Shown here one piece after another: positions 10,631 to 44,059 of a stretch of DNA of 44,283 bases (its first letter is position 1; each line of letters begins with the position of its first letter). The DNA is taken from the sequence record NC_073069.1. One strand, 5' to 3'. The notes under the pieces were generated by a model. It saw nothing but the letters and a program-made list of their open reading frames with translations. It was not told where the DNA came from and did not search any database. Position numbers and translations under genes: made by a program. The stretch is from Escherichia phage B2.

Positions 10631-11253
10631 TACCCAGCGATGCTACCGGACCCAGCCTGCGTAGCGACTGCGTTAATGCGAGTGCCGCTTCCGTTGTCGT
10701 AAGCCCCTGCCCCCGCCGAGATCTGGATAATCTGCGGCTGACCTTGTACAAAGATCTGGATCAGAGTGGCGCCCATTAACATAGGTGATACCGCGTACTT
10801 ACCCGGCAGCGTCTGGTCTATGTTGATACCGCCGTTATTTCCGAAGCTGCCGACAGTGACTAGATCGGTGAGCACCTTGCTCTCGTTGGTGAGTATGCAC
10901 GTCCCACTGGCGTCCCAAATAGCAAACCCCCATCTCGGCAGCGGTTGCGGGAATCGCGCGAATATGTACGCCGTGACGGTAAAATGTGGGTTATTCTGAC
11001 CCTGAATGCTTCCGCTAAATATAATCCGGTTACCTGATCGTGACGCCGCCAGGACGCAACGGTTATTGGACCGCATGAACACCATCGCCGGATAGTTCGC
11101 TGGGATATCCACTGCGCCACTAGCCGTCTTATAATCCGCGCCTGCGTCAACTGAATTTGCGGACACCTTAGCATAGAGCACGAATGGCGTTGAGTTTGGC
11201 GTGACGAATGGGTTGCCGTTGTTGTTATCGATTAACGCGCCGAAGTTTGCCAT
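10582..11253 (-). CDS. hypothetical tail-associated protein
   Basis: 223 aa ORF in the tail gene block, G/N/S-rich; 3' end converges on and overlaps the lipoprotein gene. Confidence 0.45.
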   Translation of the reverse strand: MANFGALIDNNNGNPFVTPNSTPFVLYAKVSANSVDAGADYKTASGAVDIPANYPAMVFMRSNNRCVLAASRSGNRIIFSGSIQGQNNPHFTVTAYIFARFPQPLPRWGFAIWDASGTCILTNESKVLTDLVTVGSFGNNGGINIDQTLPGKYAVSPMLMGATLIQIFVQGQPQIIQISAGAGAYDNGSGTRINAVATQAGSGSIAGYQNTGVALTAINVDGI

Positions 11254-11255
11254 TT

Positions 11256-11558
11256 TTACGCTTTCTCCACAAAAACTACTACCTCACATTCTGATGCTGG
11301 GTAGTTTCCAATACCGACGCTGTTTGCGGCAGATACTGTTATCGTGTTCCCGCTGGCACGGATCGCCCGACCGACCGTAGTGCCGCCTACGTCCAGCGTA
11401 ACCGCAAAACCTACTTTCATACCTGACGGAATATCGAACGACCACGCCCCCGATGTTTGACCTTGTACCAGTTTAATAATTCCGACAACCGAAACGGGCT
11501 TGATCCCGTAGTTGTTTGGTCGCCCTTGCGCGTCCCATGTTGCGACACCGAAAGCCAT
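11256..11558 (-). CDS. hypothetical small tail-region protein
   Basis: First ATG with gggagg SD at 11558; the track ORF extends to a GTG at 11621 across a terminator hairpin. Confidence 0.4.
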   Translation of the reverse strand: MAFGVATWDAQGRPNNYGIKPVSVVGIIKLVQGQTSGAWSFDIPSGMKVGFAVTLDVGGTTVGRAIRASGNTITVSAANSVGIGNYPASECEVVVFVEKA

Positions 11559-11570
11559 GCTATACCTCCC

Positions 11571-11591
11571 TAAGAAAGGGGCCGAAGCCCC
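11571..11591 (-). terminator. hairpin with T-run downstream of the J-like gene
   Basis: ggggc-ttcg-gcccc on the minus strand followed by tttctt. Confidence 0.45.
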
Positions 11592-11595
11592 TGTG

Positions 11596-14500
11596 TTACC
11601 AATAACCTGTGATTTCACCAATTTGCACGCGGAGCACGCCGTTTCCGTCCCTAACGCTGATTTGCGTGTTTGTCTGTTTCATCCCGCCACCGTTACCGGT
11701 TCCCAGGTTGATAAACGTTCCGTCTTTCCCTAAGCGCCAACCACGCGAGTAACCGTCATAGTTATTCGATTGCAGCGTGTCCGTGATCTGCGCGAAGTTG
11801 ATAGTCGCGTCTTTGATGCGTGCCGTGTCAATATACACCGCGCCGCCGTCTACGATAAACGCGGACGAAAGCGACCCGTTAGATGGGTGCATGATGTAGA
11901 ACTGGTCCGCCTTGAACGCGATGCGGGATTTAACCGCGCCACCTTCCGCAACAACTGAAAGCAGCATACCGGCATCGTAGTAAGTCCCGTTATACGTCAC
12001 GCCAGCCTTAAGGCTATATGTGGCGCTGCCACCGGAGTGGTTAAACGAAGACGTCATCTTCTGCTCGATAGCTGCGGACTGCTGACCGAACTGTGCCGCC
12101 ACCTGGGTCTTGTACTCCGCAAGTGCGCCCGCCACGTCCGCCGTTGCCATTTGCACCTGCTGGATGGCGGCCTCCTGATCGGCGAACTTAGCGGCAACAG
12201 TTTGCTGGTACTGGGCGAACGCTTGTTCCTGCGTACTCTGCGCCGTCTGCAACGTGTGGATTGCCGCTTCCGCATCGTCAAGGCGCGTGCCGATCAACGT
12301 TTCCAGTTGAGCTACCGCCTTGTGGGCGTCCGCCGCCACGTTATACGCGACCGAGATTTCTGCATAAATACCCTTGTACTCGGCGCGGGCGTTGAACAAT
12401 TGCTGCGCGTCGGTGAGCATCGCCTCGTAAATACCCTGCGGGACCGTGTCGATTGCTTCCTGGAAGCGTTTACCATCCTCGGAAGTCAAGAACTCGTCAT
12501 CAAGCCCCTTCATGTACTCGTCAACTTTGTCACTCACCTGCCCTTCAAACGGGGCCGACCAGTCCGACAGGTTGCCGATTTTATCCGCTACACGGGCGCG
12601 CAACTGCTGGTAAATTCCGAACTCAAGCGACGTTTGCGCATAATCGGACCCAGGGTATGGGACGTTGGTCAGGAATTTCCATTCCGTTTCTCCCGTCTTG
12701 CGCACTTCTAGCTCGGTGTATGAAATATCCGTCGCGGCGTTGTTGTGGTTCCACTTCCACAAGATCTGGTGAAGGCCTGAAATCGCGTTGGTGATGATAG
12801 GTGCGTTAAGCCCGCCGAGACGACCTTCCACCGGCGTGATTTCGGAAGACACCCACGGGGATGAAATCTCACCCATACCGATTGCGCGGACGCGTGCCTG
12901 GTAGTTGCCGGAGAACACGTTAGGGATGTGCGCCCCATTCGACGCCGTGCGTGGGATATTCACCCAGTCGTTACCCCACTGGATTTCCATATTCTGAAGG
13001 CTTGTACGCCGCCACTGGATTTCATACACCACGGCATCCTTCACCGGCGGGAAAACAATATCCACGTTGGTGATTAGCTGGCCTTGCGATGAGATCTGCG
13101 ACGGGGTGATGGTAACAGATTCCGGCCCCTTCATTACGCCGTCTGGCACTTGCGTGAAGATACCCGGATCTAGACGCGCGCCATTATCAACGGCGTCATA
13201 TTTGCTGTCGTTGTATTCAATCCCGCGCACCGAAAAAGTGCAGGTAGAGTCGTCATACTCCAGGTCGGTGATGCGGAATTTCTGCAACTGGATATCGTCG
13301 CCATCAACGCAAAACGGTTGGTCTGGAATCGGGTCGGCATCCAGTGCGGTTTTTAGAGTGACCTTGTTGCCGTTGACGCTGGCGATCTCGCGAGTCTCCA
13401 CATTACCGCTATCGGTGCGCACCAGGAACTTATCGCCGGGTCGGAACGTGATTTCGCTGTCCGTGTTCAGCACGGTACGCGTCCCAGGGTCCGACAACAG
13501 CCGACCGCCGCGAGTCTCGAATCCGCCAGAAATGTTTGTATCCGCGATCGCGACTACGCTACCCGGAATAAAGAATAGCCCCTCCATGCCAACCTTAAAA
13601 CTAACTTGCTGGTCAAGCTGGTTGGATATTAGCGCCCAATGCCCGCGGCGTTGCGCTTCGGATTCGCGCGTACAGCCGATCGCCGTAATATCAAGACGGT
13701 TAATCTTATGGCGGCGCACCAGTTCGACGCGCTGGCCTGTCGCGATGGCGTCATCGTAGTGGTTTTTCGGGTTGCCGTATGCTACCGCGAATGTGGAATA
13801 GCGCGTTTTCTGGCTGCCAGATGCGTAGTCGAATCGCCCATCAATAACAGATGCGTTGGTAATAGTGTGTGACACCGCGGCTACCGGTTGGTCACTGACG
13901 ATATTCAACATCTGGTTTCCCCACCAGGTCATCCCGGCGAAGATGGCAGCTAAATCCTTAAGCACGGTCCATGCGTCTGTCTGCGACTGGATGTACATAT
14001 CATTCTTAAAGCGGATTTCTCGACCACCGTTGCCGTCGCTGACCAACTGATCGCAGCGCTGCGCGATCTGGTAGAGCGCGTACCGGTTCAGCATTTGCGG
14101 TTTGATCCGGCGACCGAGGCCGAAGCGTTCAGTAATACAAATATCGTACCAGTGCCACGCAGGGTTATCCGTCCATGCGCGTTTGAACGTACCATCCCAG
14201 TCGCCCGAATAGGTATGATTAATCGGGTCGTAGTTGTTCGGGATCAACACCTTGCGACCTTTGCACTTAATGGACACGCGCGGGATGTTCTGGAACGCTT
14301 TAGCGTCGAACTCCACGAACAACAGCGCGGTTAGCGGGTAACGCAGGCGGGCGTCGATAATCTCAGTTATGGATTGCACCTGGATACCATTAACCACTTT
14401 CGCCGATGTGGAGTCTGCCGTTATGCGGTGCACCTCCACGCGCCAGCCGGTGTTAACGTTCGGCGGTAGCTCGATGCGGTGGTCGCGCTCATATAGCGAC

Positions 14501-17783: not shown

Positions 17784-20426
17784 TCATCGTTTGTACAGTA
17801 CACCACCCGGTTTCGTCGCTTTCACGATCTCGGCCTTCACCGCCTCGGTGATTTGCTTGCCGAACGCCTGCGCGGTACGGGGGTCCGGCCCGCTGACACT
17901 GGTATCCGTTTTACCGGTCCCAGTGTAAACGTTAGTCGTCACGACCATACCACCGCCTGCGCCAGACGCGGCAACGCCCAGTTTACCGTCCGGCCCGCGC
18001 TTCAGTGGCATGATGGCCTCGGGTCCAGCCTCACCCATCAACCCTGCGCCCTTAGCGAACGCCTGGACGCCATAACTGAAAAAGGTAGGCTGGCTTACCA
18101 CTTTCCCCGAATAGGCCGCTAGATTGCCTCCTGCGTACGCTCCGCCGTCCGCATTCTTAGTCAGGCCAGAGAAGATAGCGCCGAACAATCCGTTTTTGCC
18201 GCCGTCACCACCGAATGCGCTAACGATGGACTTGAATGCCTGCGATGTAGCCAGCTTGATTAATTCGCTCAGGATGGATTTGACCATATCCTTCGCGTTA
18301 ATCTTGCCCGTCTCGAAAAACTCGTTCATCGTGTCTTGCATAGCGCTGAACGTGAATTTAGTGAGCGACGCCATCTGCGTATATCCGTTACCCATTTCAT
18401 CCACGCTATCCTTAAGCCCGCGACTGAATCCATCCCATAGCGAGGCGTTAGCGCCGGTCTGCGCCTCCTGCACTTCCCGCAGCTTAGACACCGCCTTGTC
18501 TATATCAGTATCGTTAGCGCCAACCCTCTTCAGACGGTCGATTAGCTGCAATTCTTCGCGCAGGTTTGCCGCTTCGCGAGTGGAAAGCGCATAGCCCGCG
18601 GCGGTAGCTTTTAGTTCGGCGTTCTGGTTCTTAACGAAGGCATCGATCTGCGCGTGCGCCTTAACCTGCTTTTCTTTCGCGTCCAGCAATTTGGCTTCTT
18701 CGACGATCTGCTCGCGCACTTCCTTCACGCGTCCGAATTCTGCCATCTGCTGCTTTTCGGCCGCCGTTAGCGCTCTTTCTTTGCTCGCGGCGATTAACTG
18801 CTCATTGTCGGCGATCAGCTTGTTTAAGGCCGCTTGAGCGCGTTGCGTGCGGGTCTGCGTAGACGCGTTGGCTTCGATCTGCCTGCCGGATTCTCGAAGC
18901 TGGGCCAGTTCGCTCCGTGCGACTTCCAGCATTTTCATACCGGCATCCACGCGAACAGCCGCGGCCTTCTTCGGGGCCGGGTCTTTGTAACGCTCGTTTA
19001 CCTGCTTAACCGCCTCAGCAAGCTCTTTCTCGTCAATAACGCCGCGCTTATTCAGCAAATTGAGGCGGGCGATCTCGTCTGCGCGCTTCTTCGCGTTGGT
19101 TGCGTACTCCTTCTCGAACGCGGCGCGGTCACGGGCAGTGCGGTTGGCCTCCTCGTTCGCCTTTGCGGATTCGTCTGCGGCGCGGGCGTTGTCTCGCTCC
19201 GCACGGTTACGCAGGGTTAGCGACGCCACCACTTTTTCCTGGGCGACCAGTTCGCTGTAAAGCATGTTAATACGTGCTTTCTGCGCTTCAGTCATTACCC
19301 CACCGGCAGCGTTTACCGCTTTCATCTCGGCATAATAAGCCGTGGTCATGCGCTGCAATGACTCACGCGCTTTCATCTCTGACTCATTCGAGGACTGCGC
19401 GCGGCCCACATCCAGGATGGCATCCCACATTGATTTGGCTGCCGATGTGACGACGTTCATCGACCGCTCAAGCGTACCCATGTTGGACTTGATTTCATGG
19501 GTCATGCTGGTGAACGACGCAGCGGCTGTTTTGTTAGCCAACGCAACTGCGTCTGTCTCGCGACCCGCATCAACGAGCGACTGTACCTGCTGGATCTGCG
19601 CTTCGTTTACGACGTGATACTTATCCGCCAGCGCACGCAGTCCGCCAACGGGGTCGGTTGACAGCTTCGCCACCGCCGCTACCACATCCTCGATCGGCTG
19701 GCTGGACACCTTCGCGAAATCATTAACTACCTTAGCCAATGCGCCGAAGTCACCGCCCGCTTTCACACCCGCCGCCGCCAGCGCCTGGATTGTGTCACGC
19801 GTCTTGCGAAATGACCCGCCCATGCGCTCGGCGTTCTCGGACAGCACCAGGATCTGGTTAGCGGTGAGGCCGGAGATATTACCAGACAGCGCCAGCGTCT
19901 TATTAAGCGCCGCTACCTGGTTCTCGGCCCGTGACGTAATTGCCACGCCCACGCCTAACGTCGCCGTCACTGCCGCAAGTCCGATCCCTACTGGGCCGAG
20001 GAAGCCCGCAACATAACGCAGCGTGTTACCCAGTCCGCCAAACGCCCCAGTAAGCTGCGGTAGCTGCTGAAGCATAACGCGGTGCACCGGCATACCCATC
20101 TCAAGCGTTACCGCAATATCCTGCAACTGGAATGCGGCGTTCCGCGATGCGAATCCCAGGTTTTTGGTCGACATGCCTAATCGGCTGGCGAGTCGCTCCT
20201 GTTTCGTCATGCCATCTGCGGCACGCTGCGATTCAGTCGCTAACTTTTCCATTCCGCCCGCGGCGTCGCCAGTAACCTTTTTCGACTTGCCGAGTGTGTC
20301 GTTTAATTTCTTTACTTTCTGTTCTGTGTTCTCGGATTTCTGCGCAAATGTGTCCAGCACAGTATTAGCCGTTTTAATTTGCGCGACGTCCGCCTTGAGC
20401 GTGATGCCCGCTGCCTGATCTGCCAT
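17784..20426 (-). CDS. tail tape measure protein
   Basis: 880 aa, long alpha-helical and alanine-rich repeats, G-rich C-terminus; aggggga SD before ATG 20426. Confidence 0.85.
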   Translation of the reverse strand: MADQAAGITLKADVAQIKTANTVLDTFAQKSENTEQKVKKLNDTLGKSKKVTGDAAGGMEKLATESQRAADGMTKQERLASRLGMSTKNLGFASRNAAFQLQDIAVTLEMGMPVHRVMLQQLPQLTGAFGGLGNTLRYVAGFLGPVGIGLAAVTATLGVGVAITSRAENQVAALNKTLALSGNISGLTANQILVLSENAERMGGSFRKTRDTIQALAAAGVKAGGDFGALAKVVNDFAKVSSQPIEDVVAAVAKLSTDPVGGLRALADKYHVVNEAQIQQVQSLVDAGRETDAVALANKTAAASFTSMTHEIKSNMGTLERSMNVVTSAAKSMWDAILDVGRAQSSNESEMKARESLQRMTTAYYAEMKAVNAAGGVMTEAQKARINMLYSELVAQEKVVASLTLRNRAERDNARAADESAKANEEANRTARDRAAFEKEYATNAKKRADEIARLNLLNKRGVIDEKELAEAVKQVNERYKDPAPKKAAAVRVDAGMKMLEVARSELAQLRESGRQIEANASTQTRTQRAQAALNKLIADNEQLIAASKERALTAAEKQQMAEFGRVKEVREQIVEEAKLLDAKEKQVKAHAQIDAFVKNQNAELKATAAGYALSTREAANLREELQLIDRLKRVGANDTDIDKAVSKLREVQEAQTGANASLWDGFSRGLKDSVDEMGNGYTQMASLTKFTFSAMQDTMNEFFETGKINAKDMVKSILSELIKLATSQAFKSIVSAFGGDGGKNGLFGAIFSGLTKNADGGAYAGGNLAAYSGKVVSQPTFFSYGVQAFAKGAGLMGEAGPEAIMPLKRGPDGKLGVAASGAGGGMVVTTNVYTGTGKTDTSVSGPDPRTAQAFGKQITEAVKAEIVKATKPGGVLYKR

Positions 20427-20494
20427 TATGCAGTCCCCCTTTTTATGCAGTTGCCGTCGGTCATTGTATCAGCGAATTTAAAACAAACCTTATT

Positions 20495-20816
20495 CAGTCT
20501 CAGACGAGGGGGGCCAATAACCCCCGTCTAGTCTGAAAGACTGGGCTTTGTCCCGCCTGTCCCGATCGGCTAAAACCCGCGGCAGCACTGGCGGGGACAG
20601 GGGTGCTGTCCCGCTTTGTCCCGCCTCATTCTGTCCCGCTTTCTGTCCCGTTTGTTTTATGCAGAAAAACTGAATAGGCATTCACATTTTGGGGCGGGAC
20701 AGATCGGGACAGCACCCCTGTCCCGCTTTTAATTTATGCAATGTAGGTGGGTAAATATGCAGTTTTTAGAGGTGCGGGACGGAACGGGACAAAACGGGAC
20801 GTCCCGCCTGTCCCGT
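20495..20816. repeat. hairpin plus GTCCCGC iteron array, copy A
   Basis: First 70 nt (20495-20564) are 68/70 identical to 37292-37361; about 14 GTCCCG(C) units in both orientations up to 20816. Confidence 0.75.
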
Positions 20817-20820
20817 TCCG

Positions 20821-21146
20821 TTATGCGGGGTTCTGCCGCGCCATCTCATCCAGCGCAACGCGTTCCATTAGCTTGATATCTTTAAACGCACGTTGCGCGT
20901 TTTCGATACCGTGCATCTTAAACAGCCATTCTAAAACACCGTAGTCGATGCCGTATGCACCACCGAATCCGGTGCGCCATTGCGTGGAGCAATCTGTGAA
21001 GACTGCGACTACCTTCGCGTTGTCGGGCCATAGCGCAACGGGAGGACACACGTCTTCAGGTGTCGCACCCCATAAACTCGCGGCTAAATCTTCGGAGGGT
21101 GGCGGCGGGCCATAAAAGCGCCGCGCCGCCTCAATTAGTTTTTTTC
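20821..21146 (-). CDS. tail assembly chaperone -1 frame extension (gpT-like part of a G/GT-type fusion)
   Basis: Frame downstream of the G-like gene stays open in -1 from the slippery site through to 20821. Confidence 0.55.
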
Positions 21147-21497
21147 ACGCAACCCCATCAGTTCGAGGTAGTACGACGTATGGAACACGCCGAACGCGCG
21201 CGGGTAGTTGACCACCAGGCGGCGGACGTTCTCCGCGTTAAATTCGTCTGGAAGATTCCAGCCTTCAGCTACGTGCATGATGGCCTCGACCATAACGTTA
21301 AAGCCGTCCGGGTCATTGTCGTCATATTCCGACAACTTGCGCTCAGTATCCTGCATGGTCTGTGAGAATTCGTCGATGGGGCGGTGGCGCACGGTAAACG
21401 TCATTTTGCCTGGTTCGTTTTCGCCGGGGCGCGGGATTTCAATCGGCAGCTTAAAAGTCGGCTTAGGGTCAAGTGTAAAGAGTGGTGCTTTAGCCAT
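21135..21497 (-). CDS. tail assembly chaperone (gpG-like)
   Basis: 120 aa from ATG 21497 with ggaga SD; ends ...GLREKN at a GAAAAAAAC slippery run. Confidence 0.6.
   Translation of the reverse strand: MAKAPLFTLDPKPTFKLPIEIPRPGENEPGKMTFTVRHRPIDEFSQTMQDTERKLSEYDDNDPDGFNVMVEAIMHVAEGWNLPDEFNAENVRRLVVNYPRAFGVFHTSYYLELMGLREKN
21138..21144 (-). other. putative -1 programmed ribosomal frameshift heptamer A AAA AAC
   Basis: Slippery X XXY YYZ heptamer in the zero frame just before the G-like stop; the -1 frame continues into the 20821..21051 ORF. Confidence 0.55.
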
Positions 21498-21512
21498 TGT
21501 AGTATTCTCCAA

Positions 21513-21536
21513 TAAAAAAGGGGCCGTACTGGCCCC
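21513..21536 (-). terminator. intrinsic terminator between major tail gene and chaperone gene
   Basis: ggggcc-agtac-ggcccc on the minus strand followed by ttttttatt. Confidence 0.6.
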
Positions 21537-32627: not shown

Positions 32628-32668
32628 ATGGGGATTATAACAGGCACAAAAAAGCCCACCAAATCGGC
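32628..32668 (-). promoter_or_regulatory. sigma70-like extended -10 promoter upstream of the terminase genes
   Basis: tgttataat on the minus strand (TGn-TATAAT) about 65 nt upstream of the small terminase start. Confidence 0.4.
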
Positions 32669-32693
32669 AGGCTGGGAGTATTACTGGTTGTCG

Positions 32694-34041: not shown

Positions 34042-34067
34042 TAAAAAGCCCGGTTAATTCCGGGCTT
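34042..34067 (-). terminator. intrinsic terminator downstream of the lysis cassette
   Basis: aagcccgg-aattaa-ccgggctt on the minus strand followed by tttttatt. Confidence 0.6.
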
Positions 34068-35268: not shown

Positions 35269-35322
35269 AAAAAAAAGTCCCAGTAAGTTTTAGCTCACTG
35301 GGACTATATCACGCTTGCATAA

Positions 35323-36484: not shown

Positions 36485-36760
36485 CTAAGAACATTTGCGC
36501 AGTCTCCAGTGTTTGCCTACCCGCTCAACCGCGGGCTTACGGCGTAATGTAATACGGATCCCCATTGGTTGCAAGGAGGTCCGCACATAGAAATCATGTT
36601 GTGCTGCGAACTGGTGCAGATAGCGGGTCTGCGTTAATGGCTTCACATCGTCGCGATAACCCCAGAACACAGAATCGCCCTCATTCGCATTCTTAGCCCA
36701 TATTCGTATGCAATGCAGTGGAATACTCCATGAAAGGCGTTTTGCGTGTCTGCGGTCCAT
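36485..36760 (-). CDS. questionable hypothetical ORF
   Basis: 91 aa, R/W/H-rich, no SD; contains a + strand ATTGGTTGCA motif and hairpins; a 44 aa ORF in another frame (36360..36494) couples to the next gene. Confidence 0.2.
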   Translation of the reverse strand: MDRRHAKRLSWSIPLHCIRIWAKNANEGDSVFWGYRDDVKPLTQTRYLHQFAAQHDFYVRTSLQPMGIRITLRRKPAVERVGKHWRLRKCS

Positions 36761-36769
36761 TTTGGCCCA

Positions 36770-37075
36770 TTATTTCGCAAGCTGGGAGAATAGTTCGCGC
36801 TGGGCTTTAATCCGGGCGACGTTTGTCACTGCCTTATCGCCAATGCCGAAGCGATACGCCAGGCGCTCGCGGGAGAATGCCTGCGCGTATGCGTGGATGG
36901 CATTACGCAACGGACTCAGTTCGTCCATGCTGGCGCCCATACCGTAAAGCGCGCTGCGAAGTGATTGATGCGCCAGTATCGCGACCTGAAGCGCCGAGTC
37001 TACGTTGCCGTTTAGTGCCTTCGCTTCGTCCAGCTTTGCCACGGCCAGGGTGTAATTCCAGATAATCGCTTTCAT
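36770..37075 (-). CDS. hypothetical protein
   Basis: 101 aa with gagga SD; preceded by the 18-nt ATTGGTTGCACACCAACA motif. Confidence 0.45.
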   Translation of the reverse strand: MKAIIWNYTLAVAKLDEAKALNGNVDSALQVAILAHQSLRSALYGMGASMDELSPLRNAIHAYAQAFSRERLAYRFGIGDKAVTNVARIKAQRELFSQLAK

Positions 37076-37096
37076 TGTTCAGTCCTCGTGTTGGTG

Positions 37097-37137
37097 TGCA
37101 ACCAATATAGCAGGGTGCGGGGGTGGGCGCAACCAAT
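37097..37137 (-). promoter_or_regulatory. two ATTGGTTGC motifs upstream of the 37075 gene
   Basis: On the minus strand ATTGGTTGCGC...ATTGGTTGCACACCAACA then SD and ATG. Confidence 0.45.
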
Positions 37138-37291
37138 ATTAATCACGCGCATGAAAAAGTCGATCGCTATCTGCTGCAACTGCAAACTGCATTTCTCACT
37201 CACCATTCTGCAACTCGCATTGGTTGCCTAGTTCAGCGACGACCGCAATTTCCAATATGCTGCCGTGTATTATGCAATCCCGGATTTTATG

Positions 37292-37448
37292 CAGTCTCAG
37301 ACGAGGGGGGCCATTGACCCCCGTCTAGTCTGAAAGACTGGGCTTTGTCCCGCCTGTCCCGCTCCCCGCCAGGCCGCGTCATCCGTGGCGGGACGGGGGT
37401 GCTGTCCCGCTTTGTCCCGCCCCTGGTCTGTCCCGCTTTTTGTCCCGC
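37292..37448. repeat. hairpin plus GTCCCGC iteron array, copy B
   Basis: 37292-37361 is 68/70 identical to 20495-20564; followed by about 7 GTCCCGC units; lies downstream of the primase gene. Confidence 0.75.
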
Positions 37449-37498
37449 TTACTTTATGCAGTTTTATTGCATAACTATGCATTATATTCACACTACAC

Positions 37499-37614
37499 GG
37501 CAACCAATACGACCGACTAAAAGCACGCAAAATGGCAACCAATGCGCGCAGAATTTAATCATTTACCGATATGGGGATCCCCATAACGGCAACCAATGCA
37601 CGCAAAATTTAATC
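37499..37614. repeat. GGCAACCAAT direct repeats flanking a 16-bp perfect palindrome
   Basis: 30-bp repeats at 37531-37560 and 37585-37614 (27/30 identical), a third core copy at 37499-37508, palindrome tatggggatccccata at 37570-37585; overlaps the primase stop. Confidence 0.6.
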
Positions 37615-39861
37615 TTTTAAGTCTTCATCGGTCGCTGAAAGCGTGATAGGGATATCCGATTTGATGACCAAATTAGACGACCCATAGATGGCCCCGGTGT
37701 GCGGATCGGTGTAAAAACCTATCACTCCGCGCTCCACCATATCGTCGATTGCCTTCGTCGAAGTGCCACCTTTCGCGAGTCCCGCCTGGCGGACAATTGC
37801 CGATTTACTGAATCCAGTATGGTCTGGGTTATCTTCCATCAGTTTTTCCAGGGCCGCATAAAGCACTTTCTCTTTTTCGTTGCGCGGTCCGGCGGTGTTC
37901 TCTTCCTTAACTGCGGCCTTTGCCTGTTCAATAGCGAACGGTGCCAGGGCAACCGGTACGAGGTAGAGAGTCTCGTCGCGTGGCGTGGAGGCAATCGGCT
38001 TGACGTCCCATCCGGCAACCACGTCGCCGAAGTCTGGACCGGTGCTGGTGGACTGGTGCGCCTCGAACGCTTCTGACTTGCGGAGATCCACCTTCACCTT
38101 GCACTTGAGCAGGACGAAGCCGCGCGGCGCTTGCTTGATGCCGTTACGTGACTTCTCATGATACAGGTTCAATTGTCCGGGCTGGTTGTCGTCCGGCTGT
38201 TCCAGGAAGAACGCAGAATCGACAGCACCATGCAGCGCGCCGGACCCGCGTGGGGTTCTGCTGCCGTTTGCACCTTTAGCCGGGTGGTGGATGACGCCCG
38301 CACTGCCACCTGTATTTTCCGCGATGGCCTTCAGCGCTTTGACCACTTCACCCATATCGCTGGCATTGTTCTCGTCGAACGGTTTAGCCTCGGCGGACCG
38401 CAACGCAACAGTCTGGTTGAGTGAGTCGAACGCCACCAGGCCAACCGGTTCGCCGTTAGCGGTGCGGTTGATAAAGCTGATAACTTCACGCAAACCGGAC
38501 TTGCTGGTGATATCCCAGCCGCGGGATTGCAGATCGATAATGTGCAGCTTGTCCAGGTCGTGCTCATATTTAATCTGCAATGCTTCTTTACGCTGGTTGG
38601 AGGCCTCACCACCTTCCGCATCGAAATAGAAGCAATGAGACTGGACGACCTTCGCACCGCCAAACGGGATCCCCGCGGCAACCGCGCCCATCTGCCCCAG
38701 CACGTAGAAGGACTTACCGATATTCGACTCACCCGCCATATACCAGGTCGATTTAAAGTTAATCAACCCCTCGATGATCGGGTCGTGCTTACTGAACAGC
38801 GCAACCGGCTCGTTATCTAGGTCCGCATCGGTGCACACGCCGTATTCTTCGCCGTCGCCAACCGCATCAACAATATGTTCATATAAGGACTCGACTTCCT
38901 CGTCGTCCAGACCAGGCAGGATGGCGGCGATTTGTTTACGTGACATGTTGTGCGGCTCGACGTTCAGGTAGTCTGGTATCCCGAGAAGACGTAGCGCCAG
39001 GTGCTGGTGTCTATTTAGCTCCGAGCAACACTCGTTGCCGGTGTGCATACACTTGAAACGGATCTCGCCATCCTTGACCATGATAGCCGTCGACCCTTCG
39101 CCGCTGTGCAGATGTTCGTTCGGGCACGGAACTTCATAACCGCGACCGGACGATAACGGCTCGAATCCGGCCTGAAAGCACCAATCAAGAATGCCGTCAG
39201 CCACTGCGGCGTCGCCCTGGGTAAGCTCGCGGCGTACTTCCTCTTTCTCCACCCCCAGCTTGTCCGCCAGGCGGAGCAGACGCCGCACATTGGCGCGTTT
39301 GCCGTAGTGGCACTTAATAACCGATTGCTGGTGCGGCAGGTACATCAGGCGGTTTGTGTCTTTCGTGCAATCGTCGAAGTCCACATCTGACAGACCAAGT
39401 TGGTGTAATAGCGCATACTGGACACGGCCCAGGTCTTCCGCCGGGACAGGCTTGTCCGTCAACACCAGGAAACGGGCGCAACGCGTGCCGCCTTTCAGTG
39501 GGTGACGGTCGCCGGTTGTGGTGTGGAATACGTGTTCCAGACCCGCGTCGATGAAAGCCTTACGGCAGCGGCGCAAGGTGCGAGTGTCGGTGCGGTCAAT
39601 ATCAAAGAACAGGATCGAGCGGTCCACCGCGCTGGTCTTACGGCGTAGGCCGTCACTGGTATATGCCACGATGCCATCGGCCTTGCGCTTGCGGCGCGCA
39701 TACTCGGCTTTATCCTCGGTCTTGTTGATGTGCACCGATGAGATTTCTTTCGCGTCATTGATAAATTCGAAAAATTCATCAGTTGTCATCTGGAAGTTTT
39801 CCGCCCTGGCTTTTTCGCCTTTTTTAGCGGGTCTTGTTACAGCGAATTTAATTAAGCTCAT
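37609..39861 (-). CDS. primase-polymerase/helicase-like replication protein
   Basis: 750 aa; N-terminal AEP-like ILFFDIDRTD and HTTTGDRH motifs; central Walker A GESNIGKS with RecA/DnaB-like ATPase region; C-terminal region reads as a possible wHTH. Confidence 0.7.
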   Translation of the reverse strand: MSLIKFAVTRPAKKGEKARAENFQMTTDEFFEFINDAKEISSVHINKTEDKAEYARRKRKADGIVAYTSDGLRRKTSAVDRSILFFDIDRTDTRTLRRCRKAFIDAGLEHVFHTTTGDRHPLKGGTRCARFLVLTDKPVPAEDLGRVQYALLHQLGLSDVDFDDCTKDTNRLMYLPHQQSVIKCHYGKRANVRRLLRLADKLGVEKEEVRRELTQGDAAVADGILDWCFQAGFEPLSSGRGYEVPCPNEHLHSGEGSTAIMVKDGEIRFKCMHTGNECCSELNRHQHLALRLLGIPDYLNVEPHNMSRKQIAAILPGLDDEEVESLYEHIVDAVGDGEEYGVCTDADLDNEPVALFSKHDPIIEGLINFKSTWYMAGESNIGKSFYVLGQMGAVAAGIPFGGAKVVQSHCFYFDAEGGEASNQRKEALQIKYEHDLDKLHIIDLQSRGWDITSKSGLREVISFINRTANGEPVGLVAFDSLNQTVALRSAEAKPFDENNASDMGEVVKALKAIAENTGGSAGVIHHPAKGANGSRTPRGSGALHGAVDSAFFLEQPDDNQPGQLNLYHEKSRNGIKQAPRGFVLLKCKVKVDLRKSEAFEAHQSTSTGPDFGDVVAGWDVKPIASTPRDETLYLVPVALAPFAIEQAKAAVKEENTAGPRNEKEKVLYAALEKLMEDNPDHTGFSKSAIVRQAGLAKGGTSTKAIDDMVERGVIGFYTDPHTGAIYGSSNLVIKSDIPITLSATDEDLKD

Positions 39862-39871
39862 TGCCGTTGCC

Positions 39872-40201
39872 TTATTTGGAAGTTTTATTATTGCGTACCC
39901 AGGATCGCACTGTGCTCTGGTTGATTCCGGTTAGCTCGGCGATCATAGCCCATGATTTACCCTCATCACGTAAACGGATAACCTGTTTTTTGTATTCTTC
40001 CATTTCTTCATTGTGCTTTTGCAGCTTGCTTGCTGCCGTACCGTTGAGTAATTCCAGCTTCGCGCGCAATTCTTTTTCGGTAAGTCGCAGACGTTCGATT
40101 TCAAATAGCACCGCACCCACGGCATCGGTATATGCCCAGGACCGGCTTGTCTCACTGCAAACAGTCTTAGTTAACATTTCGATTGCGTCGTCGATATTCA
40201 T
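39872..40201 (-). CDS. small HTH-domain protein (putative regulator)
   Basis: 109 aa with ggaga SD; C-terminal HTH-like SWAMIAELTGINQSTVRSWV; first gene of the leftward block. Confidence 0.45.
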   Translation of the reverse strand: MNIDDAIEMLTKTVCSETSRSWAYTDAVGAVLFEIERLRLTEKELRAKLELLNGTAASKLQKHNEEMEEYKKQVIRLRDEGKSWAMIAELTGINQSTVRSWVRNNKTSK

Positions 40202-40332
40202 TGTTCTGTCTCCGGTTGGTTAATGACCAACGAAACTACACCTAAAACCGCGGGGTGTCAACTCCTTTGGAATATTGAAACGGGCGCGCACGCGTGTAAT
40301 AATACTCCCGTCTCATTGTCTCTTATTGGTTA

Positions 40333-40366
40333 GCGCCGTCGCATTTTGCTTCGGCGCTTTTTTTTT
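40333..40366 (+). terminator. hairpin followed by a 9-T run in the divergent control region
   Basis: gcgccg...cggcgc stem followed by ttttttttt, directly upstream of the -35 of the rightward promoter. Confidence 0.5.
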
Positions 40367-40377
40367 GAAATTAGTTG

Positions 40378-40407
40378 TTGACACCTATCCTGCAACCAAT
40401 CTATTAT
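40378..40407 (+). promoter_or_regulatory. sigma70-like promoter for the rightward early operon
   Basis: TTGACA (40378-40383), 18-nt spacer, TATTAT (40402-40407); the spacer contains tgcaaccaat (40391-40400). Confidence 0.5.
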
Positions 40408-40603
40408 TCACCCCGTCGACAGGATGCAGGACGCAAACTGGAGAGGGGCAACGCAGGGGCCGGATCGAAGTGTCAGGATTCCCAACCGTGATTATATAAC
40501 CAGGTCCACTACCCGAAAGGGAGAACGCGTAACCTGGCAATATGTTAAGGCCACCGACGAAGTTTACTGCCGACACCTAAACTTAACCAATCGGAGATAC
40601 ACC

Positions 40604-41032
40604 ATGTTTGAACAAATCGTAAACCTGATCACTCGCGGCGTAGTAGCACTGGAAATCATCGCTAAACATTATGAAACCGTTGGCGCTGCCGTTGGTAAGC
40701 AGGAAGACAAGAAGCCGTCTAAGGCCAAAAAAGAAGTCGTAGAAGATGACGACGATGAAACCGAAGACGAAAAACCGGCGAAGGGTAAAAAAGCACCTGC
40801 GAAAGGCAAAGGTAAGAAAGATGCCGACCCGCTGGCAGAGATGCGCGACGAGATCAAACAATACGCCGCGATTATCGCAGGTGGTGACGACGACGACGCG
40901 AACGACGAATTTGACGACCTGCTGGAGGCGTTCGAGATCAAATCAATCGCCAAGCTGGAAGATGACGACGTGGAAGATTTCCACAAAGATCTGAAAGAAA
41001 TCGTCGAAACTTATTTCGAATTGGAAGATTAA
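40604..41032 (+). CDS. highly acidic low-complexity protein (first rightward gene)
   Basis: ggaga SD then ATG 40604; 143 aa with D/E runs (EDDDDETEDE, GGDDDDANDEFDD) and a lysine-rich segment; the track ORF from 40424 is an R-rich upstream extension. Confidence 0.5.
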   Translation: MFEQIVNLITRGVVALEIIAKHYETVGAAVGKQEDKKPSKAKKEVVEDDDDETEDEKPAKGKKAPAKGKGKKDADPLAEMRDEIKQYAAIIAGGDDDDANDEFDDLLEAFEIKSIAKLEDDDVEDFHKDLKEIVETYFELED

Positions 41033-41521: not shown

Positions 41522-42951
41522 TGGCGATTAAACCAAAACGTAAAACGCAATCCGGCAGCAATACGGAACACTCATTACTCGGGCCATCCGGTGCTAAAAA
41601 ATGGATGGGTTGCCCTGCGGCCCTGGTGGTCGAAAAAGATATCCCGAACGAATCTGGACAGGCCGCGATTAATGGTACGAGTATGCACACCGTATCTGAA
41701 GTGGTGCTAAACCGCATTATCGCCGGTGAAAAGCTAATAACAGCAAAGACGTATAAAGGATGTTACGTCGAGAATGAAGGCAAGGGGCCAGTAAAGGCGC
41801 ACCCGAAAGCACCGAAAGGCGGCGTACTGGTCAACGACGACATGGTGAAACAGTGCGACGCGTACATCGACCACTGGCGACCACTCCTCGAGGTGGCGGA
41901 GTTTGTCCAGCTTGAGATGCGCGCCGATCTGACCCGCGTCCTTCATTCAGGCGTCGAGATAGACGGTAACAAGGTTAAGACGTTCGGCACTGCCGATATG
42001 GTCATGGTCATGAAGAAGACCGATGGCACGTACATGCTGATTGTTGGCGACTTGAAGACCGGGCGACATAAGGTCGAGGCGAAAGAAAACAAACAGCTTA
42101 TGTTGTACGCGCTCGGCCTGCTGCGCAAACTGCAAACCATGTATGACATTACGACCGTGCGCCTGGTCATCTTCCAGCCGTATTGCGGCGGGGCGTCAGA
42201 GTGGGATATCTCAGTGGAAGCGCTGGAGATATTCGCGAAGTTTGCGTCCAAGCGTGCTATCGCCGCGCTCGATGCATACGCCCGCGGCAAGAAGGGACTA
42301 ACCCGCGCCGACTTCCGGCCCAGCGTCGATGCGTGCCAGTGGTGCAGATTTGCGGACCAGTGCAGCGTCCGGGCGAAGGCCGCAATCGACACGATGACGC
42401 CACCAACGGCAACCGACGAAGACCTGGGCGACGACGTGAGCGTGGCAACCGAGGAAGAGTGCGCCAACCACGACCGCAATATGGCCCGCGAAGCCCGGAA
42501 GGCTGCCCGACGTGCTAAACGGGGCAAGAAGGAATCCACCCCAGGCGCTATGAGCGCGGCGGAACTGCGCAAGGCTTATGAAGGACTTGACGCAATGCGC
42601 CAGCACATCAAAGCTATCGAATCCGCGGTATTCAAGGCGGTCATGGCGGGCGATGGCGAATCGTTGGGCCTTAAGATGGTTGCCGGTAAGGAAGGGATCC
42701 GTAAGTGGGCGGACGAGAGCGAAGTGATTGAAATATTCACGAAGGCCCGGATCAAGCGCGATGTGATGTACAAAGAAACATTGCTCAGCCCTACGGATGC
42801 CGAGAAGGTGTTGAAGGACGAAAAACCGAAAGTGTGGGCGAAGCTGTGTGCTAAAATCACGCGCGCACCCGCTAAACCGGTGTTAGCACCCATCGACGAC
42901 CCTCGCCCTGCGTGGTCGGAAGCTACTGACGAGGACTTAAGCAATGAATAA
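41521..42951 (+). CDS. PD-(D/E)XK nuclease with Cas4-like cysteine cluster (DUF2800-like)
   Basis: N-terminal Cys (MGCPAA), core TADMVMV...IVGDLKTG, C-terminal CQWCRFADQC cluster; charged C-terminal extension. Confidence 0.6.
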   Translation: MAIKPKRKTQSGSNTEHSLLGPSGAKKWMGCPAALVVEKDIPNESGQAAINGTSMHTVSEVVLNRIIAGEKLITAKTYKGCYVENEGKGPVKAHPKAPKGGVLVNDDMVKQCDAYIDHWRPLLEVAEFVQLEMRADLTRVLHSGVEIDGNKVKTFGTADMVMVMKKTDGTYMLIVGDLKTGRHKVEAKENKQLMLYALGLLRKLQTMYDITTVRLVIFQPYCGGASEWDISVEALEIFAKFASKRAIAALDAYARGKKGLTRADFRPSVDACQWCRFADQCSVRAKAAIDTMTPPTATDEDLGDDVSVATEEECANHDRNMAREARKAARRAKRGKKESTPGAMSAAELRKAYEGLDAMRQHIKAIESAVFKAVMAGDGESLGLKMVAGKEGIRKWADESEVIEIFTKARIKRDVMYKETLLSPTDAEKVLKDEKPKVWAKLCAKITRAPAKPVLAPIDDPRPAWSEATDEDLSNE

Positions 42952-43186
42952 AGTATTCGCATTCTTATTGATGATTATGCTCGGTGCGCTGGGCTTTATC
43001 CTGCATTGCGTGCAATGCGTGTTAATGGTGGCCTGGATGATTCGCCATCCGACCCGCTGGCTGGACGATGGATATAGTGCCGCCGTCGTCGACTGGGTGG
43101 AGAAGAACATCGACCGACCGCCGTTAAGCTGGATCGAGAACGTCATCAACTACGTGACCAGAAATCTTTTTAATGAAAATGCTTGA
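42944..43186 (+). CDS. small membrane protein
   Basis: ATGAATAA start/stop overlap; N-terminal hydrophobic helix FAFLLMIMLGALGFIL. Confidence 0.35.
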   Translation: MNKVFAFLLMIMLGALGFILHCVQCVLMVAWMIRHPTRWLDDGYSAAVVDWVEKNIDRPPLSWIENVINYVTRNLFNENA

Positions 43187-43276
43187 CCACCCAGGCGCAA
43201 CCAAGTAGATTAGCAACCAAGCCGAACGGGGTGGCTCACAATAACCCCGATACATGTGAAACTGAGGAATTGGAAA

Positions 43277-44059
43277 ATGGCTAAAGTCAACCTGAAAAAT
43301 GTGCGCGTATGTTTCCTTAAAATTTGGGAGCGCGATACCCCTAAACAGGATGGACAAAAACCGGCATACCGTGCAGTGATTCTTCTTGATAAAGAAGATC
43401 CGCAGGTGGACAAAGTGGAAGCGGCAGCGCGCGCAGTGCTCACCGACAAGCTGAAATCCGAGAAGAATGCTGATAAGTGGATGGACCGCCATTACGCCCA
43501 GGATTCTAAGGAATGCGCAGTTCGCGACGGTGACGAGCGCGACGAAGTGACCGAAGAATTCGAAGGCATGTTGTACATCAACGCCAAATCGTTCAAGCAG
43601 CCAAACATTCAAACGTCACTCGGCGAGAAGCAGACTGAACAAGGTCTGACTGTAGAAGGCGACGAGATCGAAGGCCAGGAGATCTACTCCGGTTGTTATT
43701 GCAATGTGTCCCTGGATATTTGGGCGTGGAACAATACCAACGGCAAGGGACTCGGTGCTGGTCTTTTAGGTCTGCGCTTCCGTGATGACGGCGAAGCCTT
43801 CGGCGGTGGCGGTTCTTCTTGCTCCGACGAAGACCTGGACAACGATGACGAAGATGAAAGCCCGCGCAAGTCCAAAAAGTCAAAACGTCGTGATGACGAC
43901 GACGATGACGACAAGCCGCGCAAGTCCAAAAAGTCCAAGCGCCGCGATGACGACGACGATGAGGAAGATGAAAAACCTCGCAAACGTCGTAAGCCACGCG
44001 ATGACGAAGATGAGGACGACGACGAAGACGAAGCGCCACGTAAACGTCGCCGCCGTTAA
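43277..44059 (+). CDS. DUF2815-like protein (putative ssDNA-binding) with acidic/basic tandem-repeat tail
   Basis: Start MAKVNLKNVRVCF typical of the family, with gagga SD; C-terminal about 3 copies of an 18-aa PRKSKKSKRRDDDDD unit. Confidence 0.6.
   Translation: MAKVNLKNVRVCFLKIWERDTPKQDGQKPAYRAVILLDKEDPQVDKVEAAARAVLTDKLKSEKNADKWMDRHYAQDSKECAVRDGDERDEVTEEFEGMLYINAKSFKQPNIQTSLGEKQTEQGLTVEGDEIEGQEIYSGCYCNVSLDIWAWNNTNGKGLGAGLLGLRFRDDGEAFGGGGSSCSDEDLDNDDEDESPRKSKKSKRRDDDDDDDKPRKSKKSKRRDDDDDEEDEKPRKRRKPRDDEDEDDDEDEAPRKRRRR

Follow-up and report, generated by a model that had tools for sequence, protein, structure and literature searches.

Replication systems that bring together a primase, a helicase and short DNA repeats or hairpins provide the closest described parallels to the locus treated here. 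In satellite phage P4, octamer repeats at ori and at crr, a distant site, are bound by the alpha protein, in which a winged helix comes after the primase-helicase (PMC4234260). RSF1010 has iterons, GC-rich and AT-rich segments, and ssi hairpins that serve with RepC, RepA and RepB' (PMC4234260). In pRN1, ORF904 combines PrimPol, helicase and winged helix; its stem-loop origin lies just 3ʹ of the gene, and a small repressor is co-transcribed (PMC4234260). The subject of the present analysis is a 175-nt hairpin-iteron module carried twice by Escherichia phage B2 (NC_073069.1), whose complete, circularly permuted genome of 44,283 bp is the stretch analysed throughout and is referred to as the window. 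The phage is a Dhillonvirus, an HK578/SO-1-like virulent siphophage of E. coli. Copy B (37287 to 37461) lies 3ʹ of the gene for a 750-residue helicase-primase, and copy A (20490 to 20664) is found between tail genes; both are read in the sense of the minus strand. The module is most likely an iteron-plus-hairpin origin that would be served by a fused PrimPol-helicase-winged-helix initiator and was duplicated into the tail operon.

Comparison with described origins

The module resembles the P4 ori/crr, RSF1010 oriV and pRN1 origins in its working but is a member of none of these families, because the primase is of the AEP rather than the Toprim type, the helicase is RepA-like rather than of superfamily 3 (SF3), the repeat units are 8-mers, and there is no sequence similarity. 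The likeness to P4 ori and crr lies in an octamer present in both orientations (here GCGGGACA) and in two cis sites kilobases apart (here 16.8 kb), and the likeness to alpha in a single primase-helicase polypeptide with a C-terminal winged helix, which is predicted in the window. However, alpha joins a Toprim primase to an SF3 helicase, whereas the window protein joins an AEP PrimPol to a RepA/AAA_25-type helicase; P4 also lacks the conserved long hairpin found in the window, and the repeat sequences are unrelated. The resemblance to P4 is therefore one of analogy, not family membership.

With the RSF1010/IncQ oriV the module appears to share a repeat array, a GC-rich and an AT-rich segment, and a conserved hairpin; furthermore, Pfam places the window helicase in one family with RepA, and both its primase and RepB' are AEP-related. 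RSF1010 differs in having 20-bp iterons and two ssi sites on opposite strands, in contrast to the 8-mers of the window and its single palindrome with wobble pairs favouring one strand. Moreover, three functions that are separate in RSF1010 seem to be fused in one window protein, and the module is present as two dispersed copies in a virulent phage. Like pRN1 and Bordetella phage BIP-1, the locus has a large stem-loop 3ʹ of the replication gene and a gene for a small DNA-binding protein upstream in the operon, and like pRN1 its protein has an AEP primase and, as predicted, a C-terminal winged helix. This placement of a stem-loop 3ʹ of a PrimPol-helicase-winged-helix gene matches the pRN1 type and is also seen in six other lineages. 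Unlike the window, pRN1 has an SF3 helicase, no iterons and a stem-loop of about 100 nt; the window has a helicase of the AAA_25 RecA/RepA type and a 49-nt hairpin with octamers, and the whole is duplicated.

Anatomy of the two copies

The module is a real and strongly conserved cis element that was annotated earlier but left uncharacterised. In the GenBank record of Sodalis phage SO-1 (NC_013600), the orthologous loci (11214 to 11597 and 40178 to 40657) are entered as repeat_region features, "region A" and "region B", under a label that names direct, inverted and palindromic repeats and notes that each region is similar to the other. The repeat pair had thus been noticed in that record, where its function was not established; it is known there as annotation alone, and no functional study or analysis of the two loci was found in the searchable literature.

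Because all flanking genes are on the minus strand, the module is described in gene sense. It runs from an AT-rich block through TGCATAAA, four GCGGGACA octamers, a 25-nt spacer, two further octamers and the hairpin to (C/A)ATAA. The four leading octamers are spaced 12, 16 and 10 bp from start to start, and the last two, before the hairpin, are 9 bp apart. The fourth octamer and an inverted unit form a head-to-head pair (GCGGGACAGCACCCCnGTCCCGC; 37388 to 37410 in copy B). In both copies TGCATAAA occurs at two places, one 4 nt upstream of the first unit and one directly past the hairpin, and the module is flanked by a direct repeat of 8 to 9 nt (CTGCATAAA / CTG(C/A)ATAA). Hairpin B, of 49 nt (37292 to 37340, minus strand), reads CAGTCTTTCAGACTAGACGGGGG-loop-CCCCCCTCGTCTGAGACTG in gene sense and has an imperfect stem of 20 bp. 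Its predicted folding energy is −27.6 to −31.7 kcal/mol (RNAfold; z = −3.7 to −4.7), and the single palindrome folds on both strands.

The iteron array of copy B (37347 to 37448) contains GTCCCGC/GCGGGACA units that start at 37347, 37356, 37388, 37404, 37414, 37430 and 37442, with spacings of 9, 10, 12 and 16 bp. In copy A the hairpin occupies 20495 to 20543, and the units of the shared module start at 20550, 20559, 20608, 20618, 20633 and 20645. Base-by-base alignment bore out the anatomy given by an earlier sequence-only reading, which had reported a second copy in the same orientation about 16.8 kb away, a hairpin segment identical at 68 of 70 positions, about seven GTCCCGC units in copy B, and a shared block. 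The offset is 16,797 bp on the same strand; segments 37292 to 37361 and 20495 to 20564 match at 68/70 positions, with both mismatches inside the hairpin loop; copy B has seven units, six on the plus strand and one inverted (37388); and the shared block is the 26-mer ggggtgctgtcccgctttgtcccgcc. The 175-nt modules align with 89% column identity, a value that also holds over about 210 alignment columns, and a repeat search recovered shared families of 106 nt (86%), 32 nt (97%) and 35 nt (89%). The 25-nt internal spacer is wholly different between A-type and B-type copies.

The units are concentrated at these two sites. GTCCCGC occurs 18 times in the window against 9.2 ± 2.9 expected, a count that none of 100 shuffles reached, and 21 of the 37 genomic copies of its 6-mer core, GTCCCG, lie within the two non-coding gaps that hold the module and make up 2% of the genome. 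Counting direct and inverted units together, there are 7 in B and 14 in A. The octamer array is 72% GC. The block adjoining it in copy B (37449 to 37498) is 72% AT against 45% for the genome and contains a TTATGCA-N7-TGCATAA palindrome (37454 to 37474); across copies, the flanking AT blocks are 70 to 77% AT. TTATGCA itself occurs 14 times genome-wide against 5.7 expected, with eight of these in the two gaps.

Gap B is a non-coding region of 533 bp (37076 to 37608). The sequence-only reading had placed copy B immediately downstream of the primase gene. It is indeed 3ʹ of that minus-strand gene, but begins 161 nt past the stop codon, in a gap with other repeats. These comprise six GCAACCAAT motifs (37098, 37129, 37220, 37500, 37535 and 37589) and two gap B-specific 38-nt direct repeats (37528 to 37565 and 37582 to 37619; 87% identical, 54 bp apart), each with GCAACCAAT and AATTTAAT; the second overlaps the helicase-primase stop codon. 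Gap A (394 bp, 20427 to 20820, non-coding) lies in an unusual location, between the tail-assembly-chaperone genes (21135 to 21512 and 20821 to 21051) and the tape-measure gene (17784 to 20426). Its additional units form A-only inverted clusters (20690 to 20816, comprising 20694 to 20726 and 20774 to 20816) separated by AT-rich blocks, and the repeat search paired arm 20690 to 20724 with 20594 to 20628 of copy A as its inverted partner. At the other edge of this gap (20424 to 20449), the start codon of the tape-measure gene lies inside CTGCATAATG, a second motif, CTGCATAA, is found 17 nt upstream, and the pair brackets the Shine-Dalgarno sequence GGGGGA; the tape-measure gene may be under translational or transcriptional control through the TGCATAA motif.

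Conservation within Dhillonvirus

By megablast, 157 GenBank phage records are related to the window at 80 to 96% identity. They contain 353 module places, and both copies are present in essentially all complete relatives. Every complete Dhillonvirus genome that was sampled keeps the two with their invariant blocks. Among 29 distinct module copies from GenBank and IMG/VR (13 B, 18 A), the octamers and stems are essentially invariant, while in these and further metagenome copies the module flanks are 80 to 90% identical and the internal spacer varies freely. In a set of 46 copies picked by an upstream anchor, and therefore unbiased with respect to the hairpin, the stem sequence is kept in 45 and variation is confined to the apical loop. 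The identity of stems and octamers in both paralogues and in 29 to 46 diverged copies, in contrast to the spacer, indicates purifying selection on these specific blocks. A test for concerted evolution of A and B was negative: the unit-arrangement variant was concordant in about 6 of 10 genomes, judged by eye, against about 50% by chance.

Pair counting in the Dhillonvirus hairpin gave 98% of cells paired. There were no double-sided compensatory changes, because the stems are invariant; constraint therefore acts on the sequence itself and not on the fold alone. Four one-sided changes keep pairing (G-C to G-U, U-G to U-A, and C-G to U-G twice), and three of the four pair solely on the gene-sense strand. 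Because such wobble-type substitutions pair there alone, the sense strand, as single-stranded DNA or RNA, would be the relevant one if a single-stranded form matters.

A natural hairpin-swap variant is found in a metagenome contig (L052; ERZ1034949 NODE-185). Its copy B keeps the octamers and has, in the same place, a wholly different but equally stable hairpin, whose loop carries a GTCCCGCC unit.

Architecture across distant lineages

A non-coding region of 350 to 900 bp lies directly 3ʹ of the helicase-primase gene in seven lineages whose helicase-primases are 44 to 69% identical. All seven regions share one design, in which a short repeat stands in both orientations and is accompanied by AT-rich blocks and a long hairpin rich in GC. 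The closest lineage, L038 (69% protein identity), has the unit GCGGGACA and a hairpin near-identical to that of the window. In the others the sequences have been replaced. Salmonella phage vB_STM-ZS of the Guernseyvirinae (44%) has GGGGGAGA with an inverted copy and its own hairpin; L039 and L040 (48 to 49%) have ACTCGCAA/TTGCGAG and their own hairpin; L042 (46%) has palindromic pairs of TTCCGCACA and a 90-nt hairpin; and L041 (47%) has other repeats and its own hairpin. Edwardsiella phage eiAU (46%) has TCGCCCCG, together with a Dhillonvirus-like hairpin core (GACGGGGGT...CCCCTCGTC) in the chaperone/tape-measure gap only. Replacement of the units lineage by lineage, with the architecture kept, indicates that a phage-encoded binding protein probably co-evolves with them.

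The primase-adjacent site is universal among the lineages examined, and the second site is not. In eiAU, a second copy occupies the same chaperone/tape-measure gap as copy A of the window. In L040, a second copy follows a head-morphogenesis gene (85% identical over 78 bp, same orientation); it appears to have arisen independently, so that the two-copy design recurs. The complete vB_STM-ZS genome has one cluster only, adjacent to the primase gene. Relatives with a single copy had been named by the sequence-only reading as a point that would count against it: complete Dhillonvirus genomes supply none, the only single-copy record in the sample being ST-T-K (28.6 kb), a partial genome, while the complete Guernseyvirinae relative does carry the primase-adjacent copy alone. 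In the preferred reading, copy B is the ancestral site and copy A the duplicate.

The RefSeq record of eiAU (L005; NC_042029) opens inside its region A (42121 to 43015 and 1 to 221). The gap there holds a reverse-strand gene (42365 to 42718) whose promoter overlaps GCAACCAAC repeats.

Candidate binding proteins

The helicase-primase gene (37609 to 39861, minus strand) is predicted to encode an AEP PrimPol with a zinc motif, a RepA-like AAA_25 helicase, a C-terminal winged helix and an acidic tail. The central assignment comes from Pfam AAA_25 (PF13481; E = 2.3e-19), the family of RSF1010 RepA-type helicases; the protein is assigned to PHROG 3228, and the direct match to RepA (1g8y) among PDB entries is weak (E = 0.47). 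Hidden Markov model searches of the termini against Pfam, NCBIfam and PDB sequences found nothing besides AAA_25, and structure prediction was therefore needed for these parts. In an alignment of 43 homologues, the N-terminal third has invariant DxD, TSGDRH and Cys/His motifs, and the acidic tail at the C-terminus is conserved. The AlphaFold model of residues 1 to 350 (pLDDT, the model confidence score, 84) matches AEP PrimPols, first that of cyanophage S-2L (E = 1e-5), then Prim-PolC and the LigD polymerase domain.

Residues of about 655 to 740 are predicted to form a DNA-binding domain of the winged-helix type, and the helicase-primase is a candidate initiator. Its recognition helix is similar among lineages that share a unit and different among those that do not. 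An alternative candidate binder is a small helix-turn-helix (HTH) protein of 109 aa, sigma-70 region-4/HTH_23-like, encoded by the first gene of the helicase-primase operon (39872 to 40201, minus strand). However, the divergent early promoter region, the expected place of action of a small or Cro-like HTH protein, has no repeat units, and such a protein is therefore disfavoured as the binder.

A proposed replication origin

The module is proposed to be the cis-acting core of an iteron-plus-hairpin phage replication origin, with copy A a second origin or a crr-like site; the probability of this reading is put at about one half. The PrimPol-helicase would bind the GCGGGACA octamers via its C-terminal winged helix, and direct and head-to-head units about one helical turn (about 10 bp) apart would favour oligomerisation and helicase loading. 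The adjoining 50-bp AT-rich block could then melt, and the GC-rich imperfect palindrome could be extruded as a hairpin on the unwound strand, which, judged by the wobble-only substitutions, would be the gene-sense strand. The extruded hairpin may act as a structure-specific priming or loading signal, as do RSF1010 ssiA/ssiB or the pRN1 stem-loop, and the phage Pol A replisome would take over the primers. The analysis establishes the anatomy of the sequence and its conservation, the architecture common to the lineages and the domain folds as predicted; octamer binding, melting, priming and origin activity are what we infer.

Support for an origin comes from an architecture that is conserved, 3ʹ of the helicase-primase gene, while its sequence was replaced at 44 to 69% protein identity. 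The purifying selection on stems and octamers, the recurrent two-copy design, the recognition-helix pattern and the lack of units in the early promoter region count for it too. The dense mixed-orientation array with spacings of 9 to 12 bp and AT-rich flanks is a layout typical of origins. Additionally, of three HK578 escapers from OLD defence, two map to the helicase-primase gene and to the promoter that drives its operon (bioRxiv 10.64898/2026.07.10.737580). OLD senses single-stranded DNA hairpins at ori-lambda, and Dhillonviruses are OLD-sensitive (bioRxiv 10.64898/2026.07.10.737580). The escaper mapping lends the origin reading indirect support, and an origin module could explain how helicase-primase mutants of HK578 escape a defence that senses origin hairpins.

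Several observations weigh against an origin. GC skew tracks transcription and flips at about 40.2 kb and about 8.4 kb, at neither copy, so a replication-driven skew switch at A or B is absent. The octamers are shorter than classical iterons of 17 to 22 bp. The winged-helix model reaches a pLDDT of 85 to 90 across just 75 or so residues, its Foldseek E-values are weak (0.13), and phylogeny confounds the correspondence of recognition helices with repeat units. The lack of double-sided compensatory changes in the hairpin counts on the same side. In Dhillonvirus, eiAU and L040, the three lineages with two copies, each copy points in the direction of transcription, and copy B sits precisely where early genes give way to late ones, with the replication genes on one side and the lysis and morphogenesis genes on the other in every lineage; both facts fit a transcription element equally well. 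To our knowledge, none of these phages has had its replication origin mapped. It is because of this, the transcription-only skew, the short units and the transcription-compatible features that the origin reading is held at about one half. DnaA boxes (TTATNCACA) are likewise not enriched, with 27 at one mismatch or fewer against 26 expected genome-wide and one per gap, and a DnaA-dependent origin was rejected; the enriched TTATGCA motif matches the DnaA box at only 7 to 8 of 9 positions.

The origin or iteron role and the P4 ori/crr analogy proposed by the sequence-only reading are thus upheld in part. The array and hairpin 3ʹ of the helicase-primase gene in every lineage, the predicted winged helix and the recurrence of a two-copy design agree with them, but the same facts fit an early/late transcription boundary element, and the skew switches at neither copy. 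The recombinational deletion of the intervening 17 kb that had been suggested found no support: the candidate, ST-T-K, is a partial genome (41825 to 44283 plus 1 to 26274), and no junction was seen.

A broader form of the origin proposal is rather doubtful. It holds that a large group of virulent enterobacterial siphophages (Dhillonvirus, Eiauvirus, Guernseyvirinae and uncultured relatives) might share a self-contained initiation system in which one AEP PrimPol, RepA-type helicase and winged-helix polypeptide does the jobs of RSF1010 RepB', RepA and RepC, reading lineage-specific octamers and a strand-specific hairpin priming signal. Repeated copying of the module into the late structural operon would have supplied a second origin, and the extruded hairpin could be the single-stranded DNA structure detected by OLD or Lamassu.

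Dhillonviruses and their relatives are among the most often isolated coliphages and Salmonella phages and are used in collections for therapy and biocontrol. Their replication origin has yet to be defined, and a defined cis module with a candidate initiator makes the origin hypothesis directly testable. The module lineages would also offer a natural series of co-evolving initiator/iteron pairs for the study of specificity, and for engineers the module is a site to avoid or exploit.

Late transcription as an alternative

Control of late transcription is possible, though on balance unlikely. Here, the octamers would bind a phage regulator, such as the 109-aa HTH protein, that switches on or boosts leftward late transcription at B, on the early/late boundary, and again at A, within the long structural operon, and the hairpin would act in mRNA as a processing, stability or antitermination element comparable to lambda nut or HK022 put. 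If true, the module would reveal how these phages control their late genes, a system so far missing. The minus-strand gene block runs from about 40.2 kb to 8.4 kb, with the small HTH gene and the helicase-primase gene first, followed by small genes, lysis, terminase, head and tail genes, and with the tail-tip genes last. In addition to the boundary position of copy B and the shared orientation described above, this reading is favoured by a scarcity of promoters. No sigma-70 promoter (at least 9/12, 16- to 18-nt spacing) was found on either strand of 36500 to 38000 or on the minus strand of gap A, so that neither gap has one on the minus strand. Elsewhere in the 20-kb late region, that strand has marginal 9/12 matches only, fewer than in shuffles. 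Since the region has several good intrinsic terminators but no sigma-70 promoters, an activator or antiterminator is needed. Moreover, the module is bordered by -10-like TGCATAA(A/T) motifs that are conserved from lineage to lineage, lineages with different units also differ in the type of their small HTH gene, and the one-sided substitutions keep G-U pairing on the gene-sense strand only.

However, activator-dependent promoters rarely have 7 to 14 sites in mixed orientation, and there is no promoter geometry common to A and B, because their similarity ends right after the hairpin. The chaperone/tape-measure position of copy A is unusual for a promoter, and the absence of units from the early promoter region, the expected site of a Cro-like HTH protein, tells against the regulator. 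The hairpin has no U-run and hence is no intrinsic terminator; none was found at the module on either strand, and the sequence next to the hairpin is GCATAAAATCC when read on in gene sense and GGCTTTGTCCC when read on along the opposite strand. Rfam 15 gave no match at the gathering threshold, and permissive thresholds returned miRNA-like hairpins far below it. Lambda nutL/nutR and HK022 putL/putR likewise consist of two co-oriented cis elements with a hairpin on long transcription units. Yet they have no sequence or Rfam similarity to the module, the window sites are not just downstream of early promoters, and nut and put have no counterpart to the dense DNA repeats in both orientations. Origins often include promoters, and for this reason the origin and transcription readings are not mutually exclusive.

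Strong hairpins with T-runs, resembling intrinsic terminators, occur on the minus strand of the late block at 35276 to 35305, 34046 to 34067 (bidirectional), 32653 to 32673 and 21520 to 21536, with no consensus sigma-70 promoters after them; one directly follows the major tail protein gene.

Remaining alternatives

A small RNA gene in two copies is improbable. The transcript, of about 150 nt, would start just after the upstream TGCATAAA, carry six GCGGGACA motifs and end with the hairpin, and could act as a sponge or an anti-defence decoy. That TGCATAAA delimits the module in both copies, that wobble substitutions are tolerated on the sense strand only, and that a stable terminal hairpin could protect the 3ʹ end all suit such a gene. 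Neither a promoter nor a terminator consensus was found, however, and no Rfam family matched. The units stand in both orientations, with the extra inverted clusters of A outside the putative transcript, which fits recognition of double-stranded DNA better than RNA, and they are swapped wholesale between lineages alongside phage DNA-binding proteins.

Still less probable is a non-essential repeat, whether a selfish element resembling miniature inverted-repeat transposable elements, a recombination hotspot or a pac signal: the flanking direct repeat, the two dispersed copies, and the headful packaging of these phages, with a preferred pac site reported for one isolate (PMC13348001), fit it, but there are no terminal inverted repeats, the flanking motif recurs elsewhere in the gaps and so is no target-site duplication, a deletion junction did not turn up, both copies lie away from the terminase genes, no copies occur in E. 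coli chromosomes, plasmids or other phage groups, and both copies are retained in Dhillonvirus as described above.

Other identities were rejected. Against a mobile element or host origin, neither 5,426 E. coli genomes nor 72,556 plasmids contained a match. As for a packaging site, headful packaging is what papers report, and the copies are distant from the terminase genes; several GenBank records happen to begin near gap B. ARAGORN found no tRNA, and the indels that separate A, B and the copies of relatives are not multiples of three, contrary to a protein-coding module.

Other repeated motifs and genome features

A second family of motifs, GCAACCAAT / GCAACCAA(T/C), has 22 sites genome-wide against 2.3 expected, nearly always intergenic. 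Sites include 5489, 5506, 7167/7179, 26391/26405, 34000/34023, 37098 to 37589, 40392 and 43197/43213, and one copy of GCAACCAA(T/C) is within the spacer of the strongest early promoter (40378 to 40407). The motif mostly reads ATTGGTTGC in the sense of the downstream gene, and other lineages have the related forms GCGGCCAAC, GCTGCCAAC and GCAGCCAAC. It probably serves the transcription programme of the phage as a promoter or operator motif.

The heptamer CGGCAGC, often ACGGCAGCR, occurs in 52 copies on both strands, in genes and between them, against 11.2 ± 3.3 expected and a top shuffle of 18. Distant relatives are likewise very rich in it (48 copies in 21.6 kb of L039). On each strand the copies are on average about 1.7 kb apart, a distance of the order of Okazaki fragments, so the heptamer could be recognised by the primase or could be a Chi-like or a modification site. 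A copy is found 30 nt past hairpin B (37259 to 37265, minus strand) and another in the A-specific spacer (20580 to 20586, plus strand).

The DNA polymerase gene of SO-1 (L035; 30312 to 33500) is annotated with a group I intron carrying an HNH endonuclease; that of the window, which runs from position 1, appears uninterrupted, unlike that of SO-1. Within the open reading frame 43256 to 44059, three tandem repeats of 54 to 60 nt (43842 to 44009) encode a repeated acidic/basic peptide, and GA-rich codon repeats (GACGACGA...) are also found at 40747 to 40909.

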